A stretch of 64,000 bases of DNA from an uncultured Candidatus Micrarchaeota archaeon (lineage in GTDB: Archaea; Micrarchaeota; Micrarchaeia; Burarchaeales; Fermentimicrarchaeaceae), in assembly GCA_903884505.1 (NCBI GenBank), contig CAISET010000002.1, positions 277,917-341,916 on the forward strand, read 5' to 3'. The notes under the pieces are model-generated. The model searched no databases. It was not told where the DNA came from and saw only the letters and a list, made by a program, of their open reading frames with translations. Each line of letters starts with the position of its first letter. The first letter of the stretch is position 1. Of this stretch, positions 3,171 to 25,689 are shown one piece after another. Position numbers and translations under genes: made by a program.

Positions 3171-4451
3171 TCACGATGCCTTCGTTGCGATGCCCATCCC
3201 AGTCGGCCTCTTGAAGATGTTGCCCATCTTCACGCCCACGAGGATTTTCACTCCCTTCCCGTCAGCAAGGTCCACGAGCCTCTGCGTGATTATCCCGTCA
3301 AGGACAACCGCGTGAATCCCGCTTCCCTCCTGCAGCGCCCTGATCAAATCGCGCACAGGCATCTCGCTCTTCAGGCCGAGCGACCCATCGTAAAGCCTTG
3401 CCCTCAGCGTGTTCTCCAGTTCGGCAAGGCTCTTCATGAGCCCCTCAGGCACCTGTACCTGTTCAACGGGGGCGGCAGGCGCCTGGGCAGCAGCTGCCTG
3501 CGCCGCTGCAGCAGCAGCGGCCTGCGCATGCAGTGCCTCCTCTCCAGGAAGCTGCAGCGGGACAGCCTTCACCCTCTTCTCAGGGAGCGGCTCCCCGCTC
3601 TCCGTCTTCGGCTTAGGCAGCCCCTCAATCTGCTCCGCAGGCACGCGTGCCCTCAGGCACTTGATTATCTCCTTGCGCGTCAGCTCCTCGACCTCCTTTC
3701 CGCGAGGCGCCCTTGCAACATAGTCTATCTCGCAGGCGTTTGCAATCTCGCGCAGGATGATGTCGCCTCCCCTGTCCCCGTCAAGGAACACGGTGGTCTC
3801 CTTCGCCCTGCACAGTGCCGCAAGCGTCCTCGGCACATTCGCGCCGCCAACCGCCACACTGTTGTTCACGTCGTTCTTCAGCAGGTTCAGGACATCTGCG
3901 CGGCCCTCGACTATTATCACCGAGTCGAAGCCGTCAATCTTTGGCCCTGACGGCAGCCTCTCAGGCCCGTATTCCGAAATCTCGGCAATCTTGACCTCCT
4001 GCCTGACGAGCTCGGAAATCTCCCTGCTCTCAGGAATCTCGGTCGTGAGCAGGTTCTTGAGCAGGCACTTCGCCCTGTCAACCACCTGCTTCCTCTTCAC
4101 GTTGCGCGTGTCCTCTATCTTCTCAACGCCGATCCTCGCATCGCAAGGGCCGACACGGTCGACAGTCTCCAGCGCAGCAGCGAGAATGGAAGTCTCAACC
4201 ATGTCAAGGGAGCTCGGGAGCATAATCTTGCCTATGCTCTTCCCTCCCCTCACCTGCAAATCGACCTCAATCCTCCCGATCCTGCCGTTCTTCTGCAGCT
4301 CGCGCAGGTCGAGCTCGTCGCCAAGCAATCCTTCGGTCTGGCCGAATATGGCGCCCACAACATCGGGCTTCTCCACCATTCCGCCGATCTCAAGGTTAGC
4401 GTAAACGACGTACTTCACTGTGTCAATATACGTTTTTCCCATATTTTTCAC
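3171..4451 (-). CDS. dnaG: archaeal DnaG-like primase (Toprim domain; exosome-associated DnaG)
   Basis: The N-terminus MGKTYIDTVKYVVYANLEIGGMVEKPDVVGAIFGQTEGLLG is the archaeal DnaG signature. Toprim acidic residues are present. Confidence 0.85.
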   Translation of the reverse strand: MKNMGKTYIDTVKYVVYANLEIGGMVEKPDVVGAIFGQTEGLLGDELDLRELQKNGRIGRIEVDLQVRGGKSIGKIMLPSSLDMVETSILAAALETVDRVGPCDARIGVEKIEDTRNVKRKQVVDRAKCLLKNLLTTEIPESREISELVRQEVKIAEISEYGPERLPSGPKIDGFDSVIIVEGRADVLNLLKNDVNNSVAVGGANVPRTLAALCRAKETTVFLDGDRGGDIILREIANACEIDYVARAPRGKEVEELTRKEIIKCLRARVPAEQIEGLPKPKTESGEPLPEKRVKAVPLQLPGEEALHAQAAAAAAAQAAAAQAPAAPVEQVQVPEGLMKSLAELENTLRARLYDGSLGLKSEMPVRDLIRALQEGSGIHAVVLDGIITQRLVDLADGKGVKILVGVKMGNIFKRPTGMGIATKAS

Positions 4452-4861: not shown

Positions 4862-5218
4862 TCAGACCCCTCCCGGCTTCGCCTCCCCTATTCGCCTTCG
4901 GGCGAATGGGGCGCATTTCGCGGAGCGAAATCGCGCCGGCGAAATGTCCGCACCTTCCGGTGCGGATAGCCTCCGCTTGATTTCCTCGAGCGGAAGTCCT
5001 ACCCTAAGCAGCTTCCTCCTGTCCCTTCCTCCCCGGACAAGCTCGACGGGCGCCCCGAGAATCTTCGAGAGCTCCCGCACAAGTTCAGCGTTCGCCCGCC
5101 CCTGCTCCGGCTTCTCGGTCAGGCTGACCTTGAGCCTTCCGCTCTTTTGGTCCCAGCCTGCCGCGAACTCCCTCGAGCCCGGGCGGACCGACGCTTCCAA
5201 TTCCGTCATATTCTTCAT
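4862..5218 (-). CDS. DUF167/YggU family protein (UPF0235)
   Basis: GRANAELVRELSKILGAPVELVRGGRDRRKLLRV matches the DUF167 core. Abuts the Toprim ORF. Confidence 0.55.
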   Translation of the reverse strand: MKNMTELEASVRPGSREFAAGWDQKSGRLKVSLTEKPEQGRANAELVRELSKILGAPVELVRGGRDRRKLLRVGLPLEEIKRRLSAPEGADISPARFRSAKCAPFARRRIGEAKPGGV

Positions 5219-5407
5219 GAAAGGATGAGCAGAAACCTGCTGCTCGGATAATCATGTGCTCTGCGATGTTGACTGTCGTTCATCGCCTGTCTAACTCCCG
5301 TGGCCATCCTCGCAGAGCACTATATTTGCCCCAGGAGCGGTATTTAAACCTGTGGCTCCGACGTGATCGTATTTATCCGGCAGTCCAATTTCTACATTTA
5401 AGCAATA

Positions 5408-6736
5408 TTAGAGGGCTTTGTCCTGCAAGCATCTCTCTTTGTCCAAAACAAATACGAATTGTTTACCTCTCGACAACTTATGTAAATAACCCCTTTCTGT
5501 TAAGTCAAAAAGATCAGTTCTTGCCGTTTGATAAGTAGTATTATACCGTTCCTTCATCTCATAAATGGTTATTGATTGTTCACTTTTACTCAAACTGATA
5601 ATTAAATCAGCTTGGCGGAAATTCATTTTTGGATTTCGGCGTATTGTTTCAAAGATTCTTTTATTCTCTTCTTTAGTTTTTTCTATATACTTTTCGAATG
5701 AAGTTATTGCAATATCCATTGCGTGCAGATTAAATTTTACAAAGTACGTAACGTCATTATTGTCCGTTTCAGCATATAAATAGGCGCGAGTATACTGCGC
5801 AGGGGCATTATTAATTGCAGTAGATATGGCAACGTATTCCAAATAATCATAATTTTGTGCCAAAAGATACCAATAGAACAGCGCCCTTGCAGTCCGGCCA
5901 TTGCCGTCAAAGAACGGGTGTATCCAACCAATCATATAATGAAGCACCATAGCCTTTACAAACGGATGAAGGTAGTACTCAGTAGACTCGCCATTAACGA
6001 AATTGCAGACCTGTTCCAAAAGCTGGTCAATCTGGCTGTATTCGGGAGGATCGTAAATGATCTGCTGTCTGCCGTCTCTAGAAAAGACCTTAATGTCGTT
6101 TGTTGTCCTGAACGCCCCCTCATATTTCTTATCGTCGAGCGTATCATTTGTGATTCGCTTATGGATTTCTCGAATTAAATCAAATGTCAATTTCTGGTTA
6201 GATTCTACATGCTCCTTGATGTACCTCATAGTAATATAGTTGTTGAGTATCATTTGTTCTGAGCGAGTCCGCGGTTTTCTATTTTCTCTCAGCATTTTTT
6301 TTGCAACCAATCTGGATGTAGATGCACCTTCCAATTGACTCGAAGCTATTGCTTCTTCCATTAATGAGTTTACTAAATATTTTTTTTGTAATTCAACCCC
6401 CATTTTAGCTTCTAAGTCTTTTTCGATTTTCCCAGCTACGCGCATGTCCAGTTCATGAAGTGTTTTTTCAATATTTGGGGTCTGTATATACCGTAGTCTC
6501 AGGCCATTGATGCCAATGGTTCGCGAATCAAAACTTCTAGAGAATTCGATAAATGTCCACAACTTCTTAAGGTCAATGTCCTTGAATTGGTCATTTATTT
6601 TCAATTCATCCCAGTGTAAGTACTCGCTATTGGCGGCATTCAGATACGGCCTAAGTTTGTCAAAGTCCTCGCGTCTCAGCTTTTCGATATGTAGCCCAAC
6701 CGGTGGTTTTTCGGGAATCCTCATAGCAGCACCCAC
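5408..6736 (-). CDS. Fic/DOC family protein (AMPylation-type Fic domain with an in-cis inhibitory motif)
   Basis: Canonical Fic motif HPFFDGNGRTARAL. An SSQLEG inhibitory-helix-like motif lies upstream. The gene sits in an AT-rich island. The ORF-table start is GTG at 6736, with an alternative ATG at 6724. Confidence 0.8.
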   Translation of the reverse strand: MGAAMRIPEKPPVGLHIEKLRREDFDKLRPYLNAANSEYLHWDELKINDQFKDIDLKKLWTFIEFSRSFDSRTIGINGLRLRYIQTPNIEKTLHELDMRVAGKIEKDLEAKMGVELQKKYLVNSLMEEAIASSQLEGASTSRLVAKKMLRENRKPRTRSEQMILNNYITMRYIKEHVESNQKLTFDLIREIHKRITNDTLDDKKYEGAFRTTNDIKVFSRDGRQQIIYDPPEYSQIDQLLEQVCNFVNGESTEYYLHPFVKAMVLHYMIGWIHPFFDGNGRTARALFYWYLLAQNYDYLEYVAISTAINNAPAQYTRAYLYAETDNNDVTYFVKFNLHAMDIAITSFEKYIEKTKEENKRIFETIRRNPKMNFRQADLIISLSKSEQSITIYEMKERYNTTYQTARTDLFDLTERGYLHKLSRGKQFVFVLDKERCLQDKAL

Positions 6737-6777
6737 ATACTAATGTCACCTCTATTAGTACACATTCCCATTTATTA

Positions 6778-6880
6778 ATCTATGTACTAATTATAAACTC
6801 ATTAGTACTCATTAGTATATTGTTGGGTTCGAATGGATCAATCTATGTACTAATTATAAACTCATTAGTATTCATTAGTA
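6778..6880. repeat. tandem direct repeat: 40-bp unit (atctatgtactaattataaactcattagta[c/t]tcattagta) x2 at 6778-6817 and 6841-6880, separated by a 23-bp spacer
   Basis: Seen directly in the sequence, with internal ctcattagta sub-repeats. It lies at the right edge of the low-GC Fic island. The spacer contains gggttcgaat, which resembles a tRNA T-arm. Confidence 0.8.
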
Positions 6881-6892
6881 CGAGCTAACGGT

Positions 6893-7432
6893 TTAGGCCT
6901 CGGTTTCCTCTTCGCAGTCCTCGCAGACGAGCTTCTTCCCGACCTTCCTGAGCGATTCCGAGTAGTTGAAGCACTCCTCGCAGATTCCCGTGAACTCCTC
7001 CGCCTTCCCGAACCTCTCAATGGTGTTCCTCTCCCTTATTATGTCGAAGAGCGCGGGGCTCACGCGGACAACGTCCGTCTCGCTCAGGATTCCAATCAGC
7101 TTCCCCTTGTTGCTGACCACGGGCAGCCTCTTAATGCGCTCGTCGCGCATCATCTTCGCCGCGTCCTCGATGTCGACTTCCGGCCCGACCGCCTTCAGCG
7201 GCGAGCTCATAACCTGCTTGAGCTTGACCTTCTTCGGGTCCTTCCCAGGCGCCATCACCTTGAAGACAAGGTCCCGCTCAGTCAGAATCCCGACCGGCTC
7301 GCTCTTGTGCAACACTATTATGCTGCCGATGGCATTCTTCTTCAGAGTCTCGGCTGCATCCTTGACTGCCGCATCCTGCGGCAGCGTAATCACGCCCTTC
7401 CTCATCACGTCGCCGACTCGAACTTCTTTCAT
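6893..7432 (-). CDS. CBS-domain pair protein with a C-terminal Cys4 zinc ribbon
   Basis: Two CBS-like segments (VITLPQDAAV...; IKRLPVVSNKGKLIGILSETDV). C-terminal CEECFN...CEDC. Confidence 0.65.
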   Translation of the reverse strand: MKEVRVGDVMRKGVITLPQDAAVKDAAETLKKNAIGSIIVLHKSEPVGILTERDLVFKVMAPGKDPKKVKLKQVMSSPLKAVGPEVDIEDAAKMMRDERIKRLPVVSNKGKLIGILSETDVVRVSPALFDIIRERNTIERFGKAEEFTGICEECFNYSESLRKVGKKLVCEDCEEETEA

Positions 7433-8307: not shown

Positions 8308-8790
8308 ATGCGGCGCTACGAGAGGCACCCGACGCGCTCGGGGAACTCGCTGCAGGAGTGGCACAGGGTGAAGAACCCCCTGGCAGTGGTATTCAACTTC
8401 ATGGTAATCTCCCTCACCAAAATCCTCCCCTCCCTTTCGCTGAAGAGATGGCTTCTCCGCCGGACAGGGATGAAGGTCGGCAAGGGCGCGGCGATAGGCC
8501 TTGACGTGCAGTTCGACATCTTCTTCCCGGAGCTTATCGAGCTTGGCGAGAACTGCGTGGTAGGCTATGGCGCAGCGCTCCTCGCGCACGAGTACCTGAT
8601 CAAGGAATACCGGACCGGAAGGACGCGCATAGGGAATAACGCCGTGATAGGCGTGAATTCAACATTGCTCTGCGGCGTCGAGATTGGCGACGGCGCGACG
8701 GTTGCCGCTGGCGCGGTCGTTGCAGACAACGTCCCGGAAGGCGCTGCTGTCGGCGGCGTTCCCGCAAGGCCGATGAGGATGCGCGAATGA
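8308..8790 (+). CDS. hexapeptide-repeat (LbH) acetyltransferase, maltose/galactoside O-acetyltransferase-like
   Basis: Repeated [LIV]G-x-x-x-x hexapeptides (IGNNAVIGVNSTLLCGVEIGDGATVAAGAVV). Confidence 0.65.
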   Translation: MRRYERHPTRSGNSLQEWHRVKNPLAVVFNFMVISLTKILPSLSLKRWLLRRTGMKVGKGAAIGLDVQFDIFFPELIELGENCVVGYGAALLAHEYLIKEYRTGRTRIGNNAVIGVNSTLLCGVEIGDGATVAAGAVVADNVPEGAAVGGVPARPMRMRE

Positions 8791-13058: not shown

Positions 13059-14795
13059 GTGTCTTTGGCAGGCTCAAAACGCGGCCAGATCGCCCTCGGA
13101 TCGTCTCCGGCGATAACGCGTGGCCAGACCGCTCTCGAATTCCTGACAACCTACGGCTGGGCAATCTTAGTGCTCCTGGCCGCGCTCTCAGTAATGTATT
13201 ACCTCGGAATCTTCACCCCTCCTTCGCCCAACTCCTGCATCCTTCCCTCAGGTTTCGCATGCCAGGGGTACAAGCTGTCCTCAGGCCCCGGTGGCAGTGG
13301 CGTGCTCACGCTCGACCTCTCGCAGACGACCGGCCACACAATACACATAGTCGGGCTGGCTTGTTCGGCAGAATCCGCGCCCGGCATGACTGCTGTTGAC
13401 GCAACCTTGGACACGGGCCAGAAAGCCAGCTTCCCCTCCCTCAATTGCTCCAATGTCGACGGTTCGCGACCGGCCGCAGGCGATTACTACCGCGGCAAAT
13501 TATACACCAACTACACGGACGAGGACACGGGAATAAGCCACGTCGTGAAGGGCGAACTATCCTACCGCGTCGAGGTAGCCAGTGCAGCCTCGCCCACACC
13601 AAGCCTCTCTCCCAGCCCCTCCCCGACAGTAGGCATATCCCCTAGCCCGTCACCATCGCCCAGCCCAACTCCGACCCCAACACCTACAGAAACCCCGACT
13701 CCCACTCCAACCCCGACACCGGCGCCCACATCCGCCTTCACGATAGACACGACCGCGGACTTCGACGCTGGGGCTGAGAATGGCACCGCAACGATAACCC
13801 AGAACCCTGGAACGACGGCGGCGGATACGCTCGAACTGAAGAACGCCGAGATAACACCTGATGCGAACACTGTGGGTCTCTGGCACATGGACGAGGGCTC
13901 GAGCGGCACAACCGCTGATTCAAGCGGGAATGGGAATACAGGAACGATAAGCGGCGCAACATGGAATTCCTCCGGCATGTTTGGGAACTCGCTGGCGTTT
14001 AATGGGAGTACTGATTATGTAGATGTCGGGAATAATCCAAGCCTTAGTCCTTCTAATGCCCTGACCGTAACAGCATGGGTAAAATATAATGTTATAAATA
14101 GAAACACGGCCATCTATTCAAATAGCGAAATAATAAATATTGCAGTTAGTAATAGTGACAATGCATTTTTTTATCTTACAGACGTGAATTATTGGGTCAT
14201 GCCTGCAGGTGCAATCGGGAACATCAATAACGGGCAATGGCACCAACTAGTTTTTACTTATGACAGTGCAGGCGGTGCAAATAACATGCGTGTCTATGCA
14301 GACGGCATCTTGAAGCAGCAGACAACAGCAACAGGCACGCTGGCACCAACCAGCCACCATACGAAATTAGGCGTCTGGGCTGACGCTTACTATTGGTATG
14401 ATGGCACCATGGACGACGTCGCAATCTACAACCGCTCCCTCTCGGCTGATGAGATAACCGCACGCTACAATTCCGGCCTGAAATACCACACCTCCGGCAA
14501 CTGGACCTCAGCCACCCAAACGATGCCATCCGGCAAGCAGCTCTACGACCTCAGCCTCACGGTTTCAGGAGGTGGCACCTCAGACATAAGCAAGGTTGAG
14601 GTTCTCGACTCATCTGATAATAGCGTCATCACCACATGTTCCACACCCATCACAACGAGCACCGTGCTCACTGCCGCAGACTTCGACAACGGGTTCGGCG
14701 GGACTATGAACAAGAACCTGAAGCTAAGGCTCTACCTCGTTGGCGATGGCGCAAGCAGCATCGCAATTGAGGATATCCAGGGAAGGGCGCAATAG
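13059..14795 (+). CDS. large pilin-like surface protein: class III signal peptide + pilin core + Pro/Thr/Ser linker + LamG (Laminin_G_3 / ConA-like lectin) domain
   Basis: ITRG|[18 protein letters not shown]. (SP)n(TP)n linker. LWHMDEG..DSSGNGNTGT..GATW..GMFGNSLAFNGSTDYVDV......DDVAIYNRSLSADEI is the PF13385 hallmark. Confidence 0.8.
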   Translation: MSLAGSKRGQIALGSSPAITRGQTALEFLTTYGWAILVLLAALSVMYYLGIFTPPSPNSCILPSGFACQGYKLSSGPGGSGVLTLDLSQTTGHTIHIVGLACSAESAPGMTAVDATLDTGQKASFPSLNCSNVDGSRPAAGDYYRGKLYTNYTDEDTGISHVVKGELSYRVEVASAASPTPSLSPSPSPTVGISPSPSPSPSPTPTPTPTETPTPTPTPTPAPTSAFTIDTTADFDAGAENGTATITQNPGTTAADTLELKNAEITPDANTVGLWHMDEGSSGTTADSSGNGNTGTISGATWNSSGMFGNSLAFNGSTDYVDVGNNPSLSPSNALTVTAWVKYNVINRNTAIYSNSEIINIAVSNSDNAFFYLTDVNYWVMPAGAIGNINNGQWHQLVFTYDSAGGANNMRVYADGILKQQTTATGTLAPTSHHTKLGVWADAYYWYDGTMDDVAIYNRSLSADEITARYNSGLKYHTSGNWTSATQTMPSGKQLYDLSLTVSGGGTSDISKVEVLDSSDNSVITTCSTPITTSTVLTAADFDNGFGGTMNKNLKLRLYLVGDGASSIAIEDIQGRAQ

Positions 14796-14819
14796 CCGCC
14801 AAATAACCAAAGAAGAGAT

Positions 14820-17264
14820 GTGATTATGTCCAAGATGCAACGTGCGATGCAAATCAAATCGTCTCCGGCGATAACGCGCGGCCAGACTGCTCTCGAATTC
14901 CTGACAACATATGGCTGGGCAATCTTGGTGCTTCTGGCCGCGCTCTCAGTAATGTATTACCTCGGAATCTTCACCCCTCCTTCGCCCAACTCCTGCATCC
15001 TTCCCTCAGGTTTCGCATGCCAGGGGTACAAGCTGTCCTCAGGTCCCGGCGGCAGCGGCGTCCTAACACTTGACTTCTCACAGACTACCGGCCATACCAT
15101 CCACATAACCGGCCTGGCCTGTTCGGCAGAATCCGCGCCAGGCATGACTGCGGTTGACGCAACCCTGGACACGGGGCAGAAAGCCAGCTTCCCCACCATA
15201 AATTGCTCCAATGCAGACGGTTCGCGACCGGCCGCAGGCGATTACTACCGCGGCAAGATCTACATCAACTACACGGACGAGGACACGGGAATGAGCCATA
15301 TCGTGAAGGGCGAACTATCCTACCGCGTTGAGGTAGCCGGCGCAGCCTCGCCCACACCAAGCCCCTCCCCGACTGTCGGCATATCCCCTAGCCCGTCACC
15401 ATCGCCCAGCCCAACTCCGACCCCAACTCCGACACCCACGCCAACTCCTACGCCCACGCCTACCCCGACACCAGTGCCGAACGGCTGGTTCTTCGGCACG
15501 GTCACCGGTTCCGGGCCTATCGAAGGGGTTAGCGTGAATGCAAGCAACGCGACCGGCTTTTGGGCTGACACCACCAATGCCAGCGGCCAGTATGCGATTT
15601 ATGACCTCGCGCCAGGCCAGTACGACCTGAACGCCAGCATGGCAGGCTATTATGACAATGCTACGACCGCCACCATAACCCCTGGCGCCGGAACAGAGAT
15701 GAACTTCACGCTGCAGGCTATCCCGCCTCCCGCCATATTTTTCGATCTGACGTCGACCGCGGACTTCGACGCTGGGGCTGAGCATGGCACCGCAACAATA
15801 ACCCAGAATCCCGGAACGGCAGCTGCGAACACGCTTGAGCTGAAGAACGCCGAGATAACACCTGATGCAAACACAGTGGGCCTCTGGCACATGGACGAGG
15901 GCACTGGCGTCACAACCGCTGATTCAAGCGGGAACGGAAACAGCGGTATGCTTGGCTCTTCCGTGAATTGGGCTTCCAGCAGCCAAGGTTCGACGGCATC
16001 GGCTACTTCCGTATGGGGAGCTCCCTACCCTGCGTCCAAGACTATCGATGATGTTACCAGCGGACTTGGAGGCGCTTGGGCAGCCGCCGATTACGCGGCG
16101 TACCCAATCAATGTGACAATTGATCTGGGGACTGTGCGAGACATCTACAAAGTCGTTGTTTGGCAGATTGATCTCGCGGACTATCATGTGAAAGACTATC
16201 AGGTTCAATTCTCAACAGACGGTTCGAGCTACACTACTATGGCATCCAATACCTTGCCCGACACAACCGCGTATGCCCAAACCAACACGTTCAGTTCCAC
16301 TCCAACAAGATACATACGAATCTACATTACTTCAGGCTATCACCATTATGCGTATGACTCCGCGGGGTTGGAGGAAATCCAAGCATATTCTGCCCCCAGG
16401 TGGAACTCCAGCGGCATGTTTGGGAACGCGCTGCGCTTTGACGGGGCGGATGATTATGTTGATGCTGGAAATGGGGCCAGTTTGAATATCGTTAACACAG
16501 TTAGTATCGAAGCATGGGTGAAGCCTGCATCAAATACTCAGAATAGTGCAATAGTTTCTAAATGGACAACTGGGTTAGGCACAATCAATTCTTATGCTCT
16601 ATACATCGGGCAAAATGCAGGCAACAACAAATGGGCATTTGCCATAGAACAATCAAATAATACTTATCGGGAACTTTCACCAAGTTCTCCAACTTTTAAT
16701 GCAGGAACATGGTACCATGTCGCTGCAGTGGCAGACGGCTCATACTTGCGACTTTATATAGATGGAATAGATACCGGAACAACAACTTCTTATGACGGAA
16801 CCATCAAAACCACTACTAAAAAACTGCTTATTGGAAAATTGAGAGAAGAAGACAATCTTTATGATTTTGACGGCACCATCGACGACGTCGCCGTCTACGA
16901 CCGCGCCCTCTCAGTAGATGAGATAGCCGCGCTCTACAACTCCGGCCTGAAATACCATACCTCCGGCAACTGGACCTCAGCCACCCAAACGATGCCGTCC
17001 GGCAAGCAGCTCTACGACCTCAGCCTCACGGTTTCAGGAGGTGGCACCTCAGACATAAGCAAGGTTGAGGTTCTCGATTCATCCGACAACAGCGTCATCA
17101 CAACGTGCACCACGCCAATCACAGCGAACACCGTGCTCACCGCTGCAGACTTCGACAACGGGTTCGGCGGGACTATGAACAAGAACCTGAAGCTAAGGCT
17201 CTACCTCGTTGGCGATGGCGCAAGCAGCATCGCAATTGAGGATATCCAGGGAAGGGCGCAATAG
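14820..17264 (+). CDS. large pilin-like surface protein: class III signal peptide + pilin core + PT linker + carboxypeptidase-regulatory-like domain + F5/8 type C (discoidin) domain + LamG domain
   Basis: The N- and C-terminal modules are near-identical to 13059..14795. Inserted domains: [37 protein letters not shown] (CarbopepD_reg-like); [30 protein letters not shown] (discoidin-like); LamG with [15 protein letters not shown]. Confidence 0.8.
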
Positions 17265-25532: not shown

Positions 25533-25689
25533 GCGGTCGTAGTCTAGCCTGGTAGGACTTAGGCCCTCCAATGGCCCTTTTCCCACCGCATATCCGGCTC
25601 CGCCGGGTTGCGCATGGTAAAAGCGCCAGCGGAAAATCCGCTGGCGAAGAGGAAAGCCTATAACCCGGGTTCAAATCCCGGCGGCCGCA
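25533..25689 (+). tRNA. intron-containing tRNA, most likely tRNA-Gly(UCC) with an ~80-nt intron at 37/38. The alternative reading Trp(CCA) is not excluded
   Basis: The 5' half is near-identical to the other Gly tRNAs. UAGGC/GCCUA stem pairs perfectly across the insert. Intact T-arm CCGGGUUCAAAUCCCGG and acceptor GCGGUCG/CGGCCGC+A. Confidence 0.65.

Follow-up and report, generated by a model that had tools for sequence, protein, structure and literature searches.

A 64,000-nucleotide (nt) stretch of DNA from an uncultured Candidatus Micrarchaeota archaeon (contig CAISET010000002.1; hereafter the window, numbered from its first letter) carries a single Fic gene in an AT-rich block between the genes of a DUF167 protein and a CBS-domain protein, with two direct repeats close by. 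How did this gene come to lie there, and what are the repeats for? The original prediction described the block as an island bounded by tandem repeats and a tRNA-like fragment, the footprint expected of an integrated element. We conclude that positions 5351-6892 are a horizontally acquired single-gene cassette with a probably self-repressing SoFic/CccR-type toxin or defence gene, which encodes a class II Fic protein with a winged helix-turn-helix (wHTH). The insertion, the domain content of the protein, the conservation of the operator with the gene and the covariation between operator and recognition helix are shown.

The Fic block is foreign DNA inserted at the CBS-DUF167 locus. It is AT-rich, as predicted, and forms the deepest trough in guanine-plus-cytosine (GC) content of the 64 kb: 300-nt windows have a GC content of 0.33-0.45 over ~5250-7050 and of 0.54-0.66 in both flanks, and the lowest 1-kb value of the window is that of the Fic block. 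The gene itself has a GC content of 0.39, compared with 0.59 for the rest. The compositional check that had been proposed supports the anomaly, with GC at third codon positions (GC3) of 0.409 in the Fic open reading frame (ORF) versus 0.708 +/- 0.069 in the 43 other ORFs of at least 250 amino acids (aa).

A synteny check had also been proposed. The best syntenic relatives by CBS protein are a Micrarchaeota metagenome-assembled genome (MAG) with 77% identity (L005) and a DPANN MAG with 68% identity (L006). Both have the gene order CBS, DUF167, small Toprim protein, DnaG and Mg-chelatase-like ATPase, in which the CBS-DUF167 adjacency is kept and Fic is absent. Their CBS-DUF167 spacer of ~140 bp aligns with window positions 5225-5350, directly after the cassette, and the aligned part starts with a shared GGTTTAAATACC that, in L005 and L006, lies within ~15 nt of the CBS stop codon. 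This places the inserted DNA at ~5351-6892. The interval first proposed, 5230-6892, was too wide at its left end, where 5230-5350 (120 bp) is native DNA of normal GC content that is conserved in both relatives. The cassette is bordered by the CBS stop codon and by TTTAAATA, a conserved part of the native intergenic element; these borders are accurate only to a few bp. Between them lie 168 bp upstream of the ATG, with the operators and promoter, the Fic ORF and a 57-bp downstream tail. Pfam identifies the flanking genes as archaeal (DnaG-type Toprim primase, Hjc resolvase, ACT protein and DUF1405). In several samples, contigs of this population encode an identical Fic protein at the same locus; given that L005 and L006 are free of Fic, the acquisition is older than this population and younger than its split from these two relatives.

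The Fic ORF is intact and, as anticipated, is alone: no other ORF of 100 aa or more in 5351-6892 has any family support. An alternative start, ATG 6724, would give 438 aa, and homologues begin there with MR[IL]PEKPP. A Shine-Dalgarno-like GAGGTGA (6746-6752) lies 9 nt ahead of the GTG, so both starts are possible. Deposited gene calls of the protein have 438 aa (P0121) or are shortened to 295 and 281 aa, and an exact look-up of the 442-aa product returned no match. Pfam Fic (PF02661) matches aa 183-291 with 73.8 bits (cut-off 24, E 2e-20). Both motifs named in the original prediction are present where stated and conserved in 27 homologues. In the catalytic motif, of the form HxFx[D/E]GNGRxxR, residues H273, F275 and D277-R284 are invariant. 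The inhibitory-helix motif, of the form [S/T]xxxE[G/N], is read as S132-S-Q-L-E136-G137 within a predicted helix at 114-135/137; its SLMEEAIASSQLEGA is invariant, and it aligns to the alpha-inh region of CccR (PMC9755527). Because this motif is N-terminal to the Fic core, we assign the protein by sequence to class II, in which the inhibitory helix acts in cis in the same chain. With a complete catalytic motif, the enzyme could plausibly become active after displacement of the inhibitory Glu136.

Profile searches and structure prediction resolved one of the two long extensions of the Fic core to which the original prediction had drawn attention. The C-terminal extension is a wHTH region. Pfam HTH_DeoR matches it at aa 378-421, and an AlphaFold2 (AF2) model built from 27 homologues (predicted local distance difference test 86.7, predicted template modelling score 0.82) has helices at 373-385, 391-398 and 402-414 followed by strands at 418-423 and 426-431, which form a three-helix plus beta-hairpin domain at aa 373-431. 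No fold relative is recognisable for the N-terminal domain, which is conserved family-wide (P8, Y39, W42, W60, R67, L93, H94, D97). Foldseek comparison of the model returned SoFic as the best structural match (template modelling score by target 0.68-0.70, with 0.68 and E = 4e-11 for 3zcn); further matches were CccR 7xux (8e-11), Coxiella Fic2, FICD and others (E ~1e-10). Sequence matches in the PDB were to CccR 7xux (3.4e-15, aligned from aa 89) and to SoFic (3eqx, 3zcn and 9tc4, ~1e-10, from aa 118-123 to aa 430), and the C-terminal alignment with SoFic and 9vjc extends to aa 427-430. The PADLOC hidden Markov model for SoFic (PDLC03963) matches with E = 6.4e-48 and 161.9 bits and covers positions 49-349 of the 361 in the profile; the score for the NCBIfam SoFic equivalog NF046030 is 67.5 bits against a cut-off of 550. 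These two results together indicate that the protein belongs to the SoFic superfamily and shares its architecture, but is not a SoFic orthologue.

We found no plausible small antitoxin ORF of the E. coli AS1 type in the cassette or downstream of the Fic ORF, where the only ORF has 30 aa and lies in conserved native GC-rich DNA. An intrinsic-terminator scan of the region found none. A sigma-70 promoter scan did not rise above shuffles; its model is bacterial and not relevant for an archaeal promoter.

The direct repeats, predicted at 40 bp, are real. They span 41 nt with one mismatch (6777-6817 and 6840-6880), recur with a period of 63 nt and extend to 53 nt at 89%. The att or border role proposed for them is not supported, as both copies lie upstream of the gene, and repeats on the same side of a gene are not the product of an att duplication. 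The 31-nt core AATCTATGTACTAATTATAAACTCATTAGTA occurs exactly twice in the window (6777-6807 and 6840-6870; 0 of 100 shuffles), and the four occurrences of TCATTAGTA in the window all fall within the repeat region. So do most copies of a shorter motif: 8 of the 10 TACTAAT sites in the 64 kb lie within 6738-6880, where 1.4 are expected. TACTAAT-N9-ATTAGTA has three matches in the 64 kb, all upstream of Fic (0.05 expected).

Each 41-bp repeat has the layout TACTAATGA-N-TACTAATGA-N7-ATTAGTA, in which the direct half-sites are 10 bp, or one helical turn, apart. We refer to the distal repeat as module A, to the proximal one as module B and to a third site, nearest the gene, as palindrome C. In the sense orientation, the 168 nt from the CBS stop codon to the ATG read TAA-ACCGTTAGCTCG, module A, GATCCATTCGAACCCAACAATA, module B, AATAAATGGGAATGTG, palindrome C and TGTGGGTGCTGCT-ATG. 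The first repeat starts 12 nt from the CBS stop codon; relative to the ATG, the modules are at -156 and -93 and palindrome C is at -36 to -14. Module B is followed by ATTAATAAAT (6770-6779, sense), which aligns with the TTTATAAAT/TTTATAT TATA-like box of homologues. The ATAGATTAATAAAT at this place, aligned with ATAGGTTTATAAAT in the homologues, is the likeliest TATA box, and the 22-nt spacer between the modules is weakly similar to the same TATA-like stretch. Palindrome C occupies the position of the homologues' proximal module and spans the Shine-Dalgarno-like GAGGTGA. The direct repeats are most likely the Fic protein's own operator sites.

Two alleles of this region segregate in the population. 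The two-module allele, with a CBS-Fic gap of 168 nt, is found in the window, L003, L004 and three further contigs. The one-module allele, with a gap of 105 nt and module A absent, is found in L001 and one further contig, and differs from the two-module allele precisely by the lack of one repeat and the spacer. Since the two-module form contains 22 extra nt that are missing from the one-module form, a deletion through recombination of one repeat with the other would be a simpler direction of change than duplication. Several independent assemblies of the population stop 280-360 nt into the Fic gene (window 6360-6450) or inside the repeats, which suggests strain heterogeneity or a drop in coverage at the AT-rich cassette.

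The putative operators travel with the gene. The Fic protein has thousands of relatives, the closest of which share 60-68% identity over 98% of its length and come from Micrarchaeota, Diapherotrites, Methanosarcinales, Methanoperedens and unassigned archaeal contigs. We compared four homologous loci (62-68% aa identity). In all four, the Fic gene is a lone low-GC ORF (0.34-0.41 versus 0.45-0.59 in the flanks). It follows immediately on a 23S rRNA gene, next to AbiEii, in L173, is divergent from gyrB in L174, adjoins MazE/ParE genes in L175 and is placed between the genes for ribosomal protein L7Ae and ProRS in L179. The original prediction had named a conserved promoter architecture as an observation that would refute it, here in its att interpretation, and such an architecture is what we find, as the module precedes the Fic homologues in these four unrelated contexts. 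Specifically, TACTAATGA-N-TACTAATGA-N6-7-AATTAGTA occurs upstream of Fic in 4/4 loci. A distal module at -101 to -117 is followed by a TTTATAA/TTTATAT box, and a proximal module stands at -46 to -52 in L173, L174 and L179 and is degenerate in L175, where the pattern search recovers the distal one only. The TATA-like box of the homologues is located between the two module copies. Four-fold degenerate sites are 27-45% identical between these Fic genes, that is, saturated, and the module is almost invariant. Retained despite saturated synonymous sites, the module is therefore under selection as part of the Fic control region.

Comparison of the cassette ends over five loci revealed no conserved termini or target-site duplications beyond the operator module. 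Flanking duplications are seen in L173 alone (a Micrarchaeota MAG; regions 3734-3850 and 5336-5613), and they consist of rRNA-flank DNA: on its two sides the L173 cassette has direct repeats, 70 bp (97%) and 55 bp (93%) long, made of the 3' flank of the 23S rRNA gene. Downstream, the same locus holds a solo, shortened operator module without an ORF. It looks as if the cassette had been duplicated in tandem and one of the two gene copies then lost.

When metagenome contigs were scanned with the family alignment, at least 80 further, more distant members with 36-43% identity were recovered, and we used a 71-member set for upstream analysis. Among the matches listed, 58/71 members carry a half-site of one class three times or more in their 180 upstream nt. 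Most members with enough upstream sequence share a layout in the last 160 nt ahead of the start codon, namely two to three direct half-sites with a period of ~10 bp plus an inverted half-site, usually in two modules per member and often with a TATA-like or -10-like box between them. The architecture is constant and the half-site varies by subfamily. The classes are CTACTAA/TTAGTAG, CTACCAA/TTGGTAG, CTGCTAA/TTAGCAG, CTGTAAA/TTTACAG and ATGTCAA/TTGACAT, and further CTCCTAA/TTAGGAG, CTTTAAA/TTTAAAG, CTATCAA/TTGATAG and ATCTCGC/GCGAGAT.

Across the 71 members, the half-site is tracked by the two residues that precede T-A-R in the recognition helix (T-Y-Q-T-A-R-T-D-L in the window protein, aa 401-409). 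Members with YQ or YE have TACTAA (28/36), those with YD have TACCAA (8/8), RA goes with TGTCAA (3/3) and LP with TGTAAA (3/3), and H, S, L or R followed by Q or M accompanies TGCTAA. Class purity is 57/71, compared with a permutation mean of 35.6 and a maximum of 45, and the observed value was reached in 0 of 10000 permutations. The pairing of YD with TACCAA is found in no fewer than four lineages (the L014 group, L042, L065 and L078) whose nearest relatives outside the helix belong to other classes. The TGCTAA class, without Y, is likewise spread over several lineages with nearest relatives in other classes. This distribution is the pattern expected if the linked wHTH reads the sites. We did not find the correspondence between half-site and recognition helix described in the literature searched, which is no proof of absence.

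Given these results, we propose the following mechanism, for which the conserved upstream palindromes and the covariation are indirect support. Dimers or oligomers of the protein would bind the operator sites through the wHTH recognition helix (Y-Q-T-A-R), and the occupied sites would block the region of the TATA box and transcription factor B recognition element as well as the transcription start. Fic expression would thereby be kept low and self-limited; such control has been demonstrated in the case of CccR and is suggested in that of SoFic. The enzyme is most likely a latent AMPylating toxin, held off by its inhibitory glutamate. An antiviral or addiction role is most likely, by analogy, as SoFic-type proteins provide abortive-infection anti-phage defence in bacteria.

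A mechanism of this kind is already known. CccR of Yersinia pseudotuberculosis is a class II Fic toxin that AMPylates FtsZ and represses its own promoter via a C-terminal HTH, which recognises AGATAATCAT-N26-ATGATAATCT at the -35/-10 boxes (PMC9755527). SoFic dimers bind specifically to the stretch of 100 bp that precedes their own start codon, and they AMPylate EF-Tu (bioRxiv 10.64898/2026.07.09.737422). A lone Fic protein called SoFic was reported to be an anti-phage defence system (Millman et al. 2022; bioRxiv 10.1101/2022.05.11.491447), and a later study regards it as an abortive-infection toxin (PMC12249575).

CccR (7xux), the best PDB sequence match, has the same SxxxEG inhibitory helix, Fic core and C-terminal HTH, and its autorepression at core-promoter palindromes is the mechanism that we propose for the window Fic. 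However, CccR has 380 aa and lacks the N-terminal domain of ~85-110 aa found in the window protein, and it is a bacterial effector secreted by a type VI secretion system, whereas the window Fic is archaeal and has no secretion context. SoFic (S. oneidensis SO_4266, PDB 3eqx/3zcn) is likewise a standalone gene for a class II Fic protein with a C-terminal wHTH. It shares ~21% identity with the window protein, which has an additional N-terminal domain; unlike SoFic, the window Fic is archaeal with a TATA-type promoter, its defence role would be by analogy, and the downstream antitoxin of the E. coli AS1 type (47 aa) is not found beside it. The type II toxin-antitoxin modules FicT/FicA and VbhT/VbhA, with class I Fic proteins, resemble the window locus in that an SxxxE(G/N) glutamate inhibits a Fic toxin, in the self-repression proposed here, and in being small, AT-rich and horizontally mobile. 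The window Fic differs from them in combining inhibitor, toxin and putative autorepressor in one polypeptide, with no separate antitoxin gene.

The reading of the repeats and the gggttcgaat-containing spacer as att-site or tRNA remnants of a mobile element that brought Fic draws on real features. The block is indeed foreign DNA, the repeats sit at one of its edges, just after the CBS stop codon, and the 70- and 55-bp repeats that flank the L173 cassette tell us that border duplications happen. We nevertheless hold this explanation to be extremely improbable. Both repeats are upstream of the gene, no repeat lies at the other border, and neither the repeat, GGGTTCGAAT nor the palindrome has another copy in the 64-kb window, so that the search suggested for a second att copy came back empty. 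No integrase or transposase ORF is present in the 1.5 kb. The supposed T-arm remnant, GGGTTCGAAT (6825-6834), occurs once; at least one match is obtained in 19/100 shuffles, and as a chance-level single match with no flanking stem we rejected it. ARAGORN detects no tRNA in or near the block (5100-7000), and over the same interval Rfam gives no tRNA, tmRNA or riboswitch, only a chance mt-tmRNA match over the repeats (23.7 bits versus a gathering score of 65, E = 0.36). The module, in addition, is found upstream of homologues elsewhere at a conserved spacing to the TATA-like box and start, and covaries with the recognition helix. Another view is that the Fic gene is an inert or decaying passenger, its low GC inherited from a donor and its repeats the functionless product of recent slippage. 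The repeat copy number is indeed polymorphic, with one-copy and two-copy alleles, and assemblies often break in or near the region. Against this, the ORF is intact with all invariant family residues and encodes an identical protein on at least 8 contigs from several samples, the module is conserved over homologues with saturated synonymous sites, and the 22 nt by which the two-copy form exceeds the one-copy form do not fit a simple fresh duplication. We therefore consider a passenger gene very improbable.

Alternatively, the repeats could be regulatory but read by another factor of host or virus, or form an iteron array, with the wHTH serving to recognise a target or to activate the toxin in a DNA-dependent way. 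Some basis for this comes from viral contigs. Scanned for TACTAATGANTACTAATGA, they gave seven contigs, mostly with 10-bp tandem arrays, and 0/7 encode a Fic relative. Arrays of TTACTAATGA or ATACTAATGA lie at 3760-3900 in L186, 1700-1735 in L180 and 840-1000 in L181 with no Fic nearby; these may be iteron-like or simple satellites. The GC-rich viral contig L182 (IMGVR_UViG_3300037041_001843) has one exact, complete module, TACTAATGAATACTAATGAATGTCAAATTAGTA, at 195-243. It lies 17 nt ahead of the ATG of an unrelated 222-aa ORF without a Pfam match, and a ParB_N-domain gene comes next. This module could put a viral gene under the control of the host Fic-wHTH, act as a decoy site or be the remnant of a replaced cassette. 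A study of E. coli Sofic (PMC12249575) also links the C-terminal domain of that protein to toxic activity. However, the half-site class shifts with linked recognition-helix residues in several independent lineages, which is hard to reconcile with an unlinked reader, and in each of the contexts examined the sites keep to the 160 nt upstream of the gene itself. We regard a different reader of the sites as unlikely; the sites could also be bound by the wHTH and in addition be used for sensing or activation, a dual role.

Several observations weigh against the self-repressing defence cassette that we favor. The Pfam support for the HTH is marginal, at 21.1 bits for a cut-off of 21. The shortfall against NF046030 and the extra N-terminal domain make the transfer of function from SoFic an analogy. 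The operator geometry is unlike that of CccR, the only footprinted case: CccR uses 10-bp inverted repeats 26 bp apart, and the window has 7-bp half-sites in direct repeats of 10-bp period plus an N9 palindrome, two to three times over. The covariation test used hand-curated half-site classes and a phylogeny-blind shuffle, which the nearest-neighbor check partly compensates. The cassette lies among housekeeping genes, outside any defence island, and, precisely inserted as it is, codes for no recombinase to account for its insertion. Finally, it is by inference that we take the protein to bind DNA, to repress its gene, to AMPylate a target and to act in defence.

Table 1. Features of the Fic cassette and its neighbors in the window
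Feature	Position	Strand	Description	Basis
DUF167 gene	4862..5218	minus	left neighbor of the block	
Inserted low-GC cassette	5351..6892	minus	~1542 bp	spacer alignment with L005 and L006, synteny, GC profile
Fic ORF	5408..6736	minus	442 aa from GTG 6736	Pfam, homologue alignment
C-terminal wHTH region	5444..5620	minus		Pfam HTH_DeoR, AF2, SoFic alignment, half-site covariation
Predicted recognition helix	5495-5533	minus	aa 402-414, holds Y-Q-T-A-R-T-D-L	AF2 model
Fic catalytic motif	5885..5920	minus	HPFFDGNGRTAR, aa 273-284	read from sequence, Pfam
Inhibitory-helix motif	6326..6343	minus	SSQLEG, N-terminal to the Fic core	read from sequence
N-terminal domain	6401..6736	minus	aa 1-112; three helices, beta-hairpin, long helix	
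Palindrome C	6738..6760	minus	TACTAAT-AGAGGTGAC-ATTAGTA, between TATA-like box and start codon	
Module B (proximal repeat)	6777..6817	minus	TACTAATGA-G-TACTAATGA-GTTTATA-ATTAGTA-CATAGATT; palindrome 6785-6807	
Spacer between repeats	6818..6839	minus	22 nt, sense GATCCATTCGAACCCAACAATA; holds gggttcgaat (6825-6834)	
Module A (distal repeat)	6840..6880	minus	TACTAATGA-A-TACTAATGA-GTTTATA-ATTAGTA-CATAGATT; palindrome 6848-6870	
CBS-domain gene	6893..7432	minus	right neighbor; stop codon 6893-6895	

The native CBS-DUF167 spacer contains a conserved hairpin of ~62 nt with the stem GTGCTCTGCGAGGATG.../...CATCGCAGAGCAC (window 5256-5320, sense minus), preceded by TTTAAATA and followed by ACA. The aligned region comprises window 5225-5350 and positions 8548-8672 of both L005 and L006. 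The hairpin is kept in two related genera, with compensatory changes in 6/20 predicted pairs, and has no Rfam match at E <= 1. It may be a small archaeal non-coding RNA, for example an H/ACA-like guide with a single hairpin, or may serve the DUF167 gene as a leader. Elsewhere in the window, milder GC dips at 14001-15000 (0.495) and 16001-17000 (0.478), compared with ~0.58, fall in the plus-strand ORFs 13059..14795 and 14820..17264, whose GC3 is 0.59-0.61. ARAGORN also reports an 89-nt tRNA-Phe with anticodon AAA at 25600-25688, adjoining a tRNA-Gly; its length and odd anticodon suggest a misread intron-containing archaeal tRNA.

The cassette explains a compositional anomaly of this genome as the acquisition of one gene between a stop codon and the next promoter, with repeats that are polymorphic in copy number. 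Binding of Fic-wHTH proteins (SoFic and CccR) to their own promoters has only recently been shown, and we did not find their operator logic described in the literature searched. The conserved operator architecture, the simple covariation and the archaeal TATA-type promoters lead to testable predictions, such as swaps of specificity by one or two substitutions. More broadly, and as a possibility that we ourselves hold doubtful, the ~440-aa family with its N-terminal domain, class II Fic core and wHTH might represent pan-prokaryotic minimal 'promoter plus toxin' cassettes with lineage-private operators read by a two-residue recognition code; the window gene would then be the first SoFic-like defence or addiction gene in DPANN, and the N-terminal domain an infection sensor. 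If this is true, the recognition code has switched repeatedly, perhaps against cross-repression of co-resident cassettes or against viral hijacking. Overall, rather than a new kind of system, the finding would represent the extension of a bacterial anti-phage gene type to DPANN archaea.

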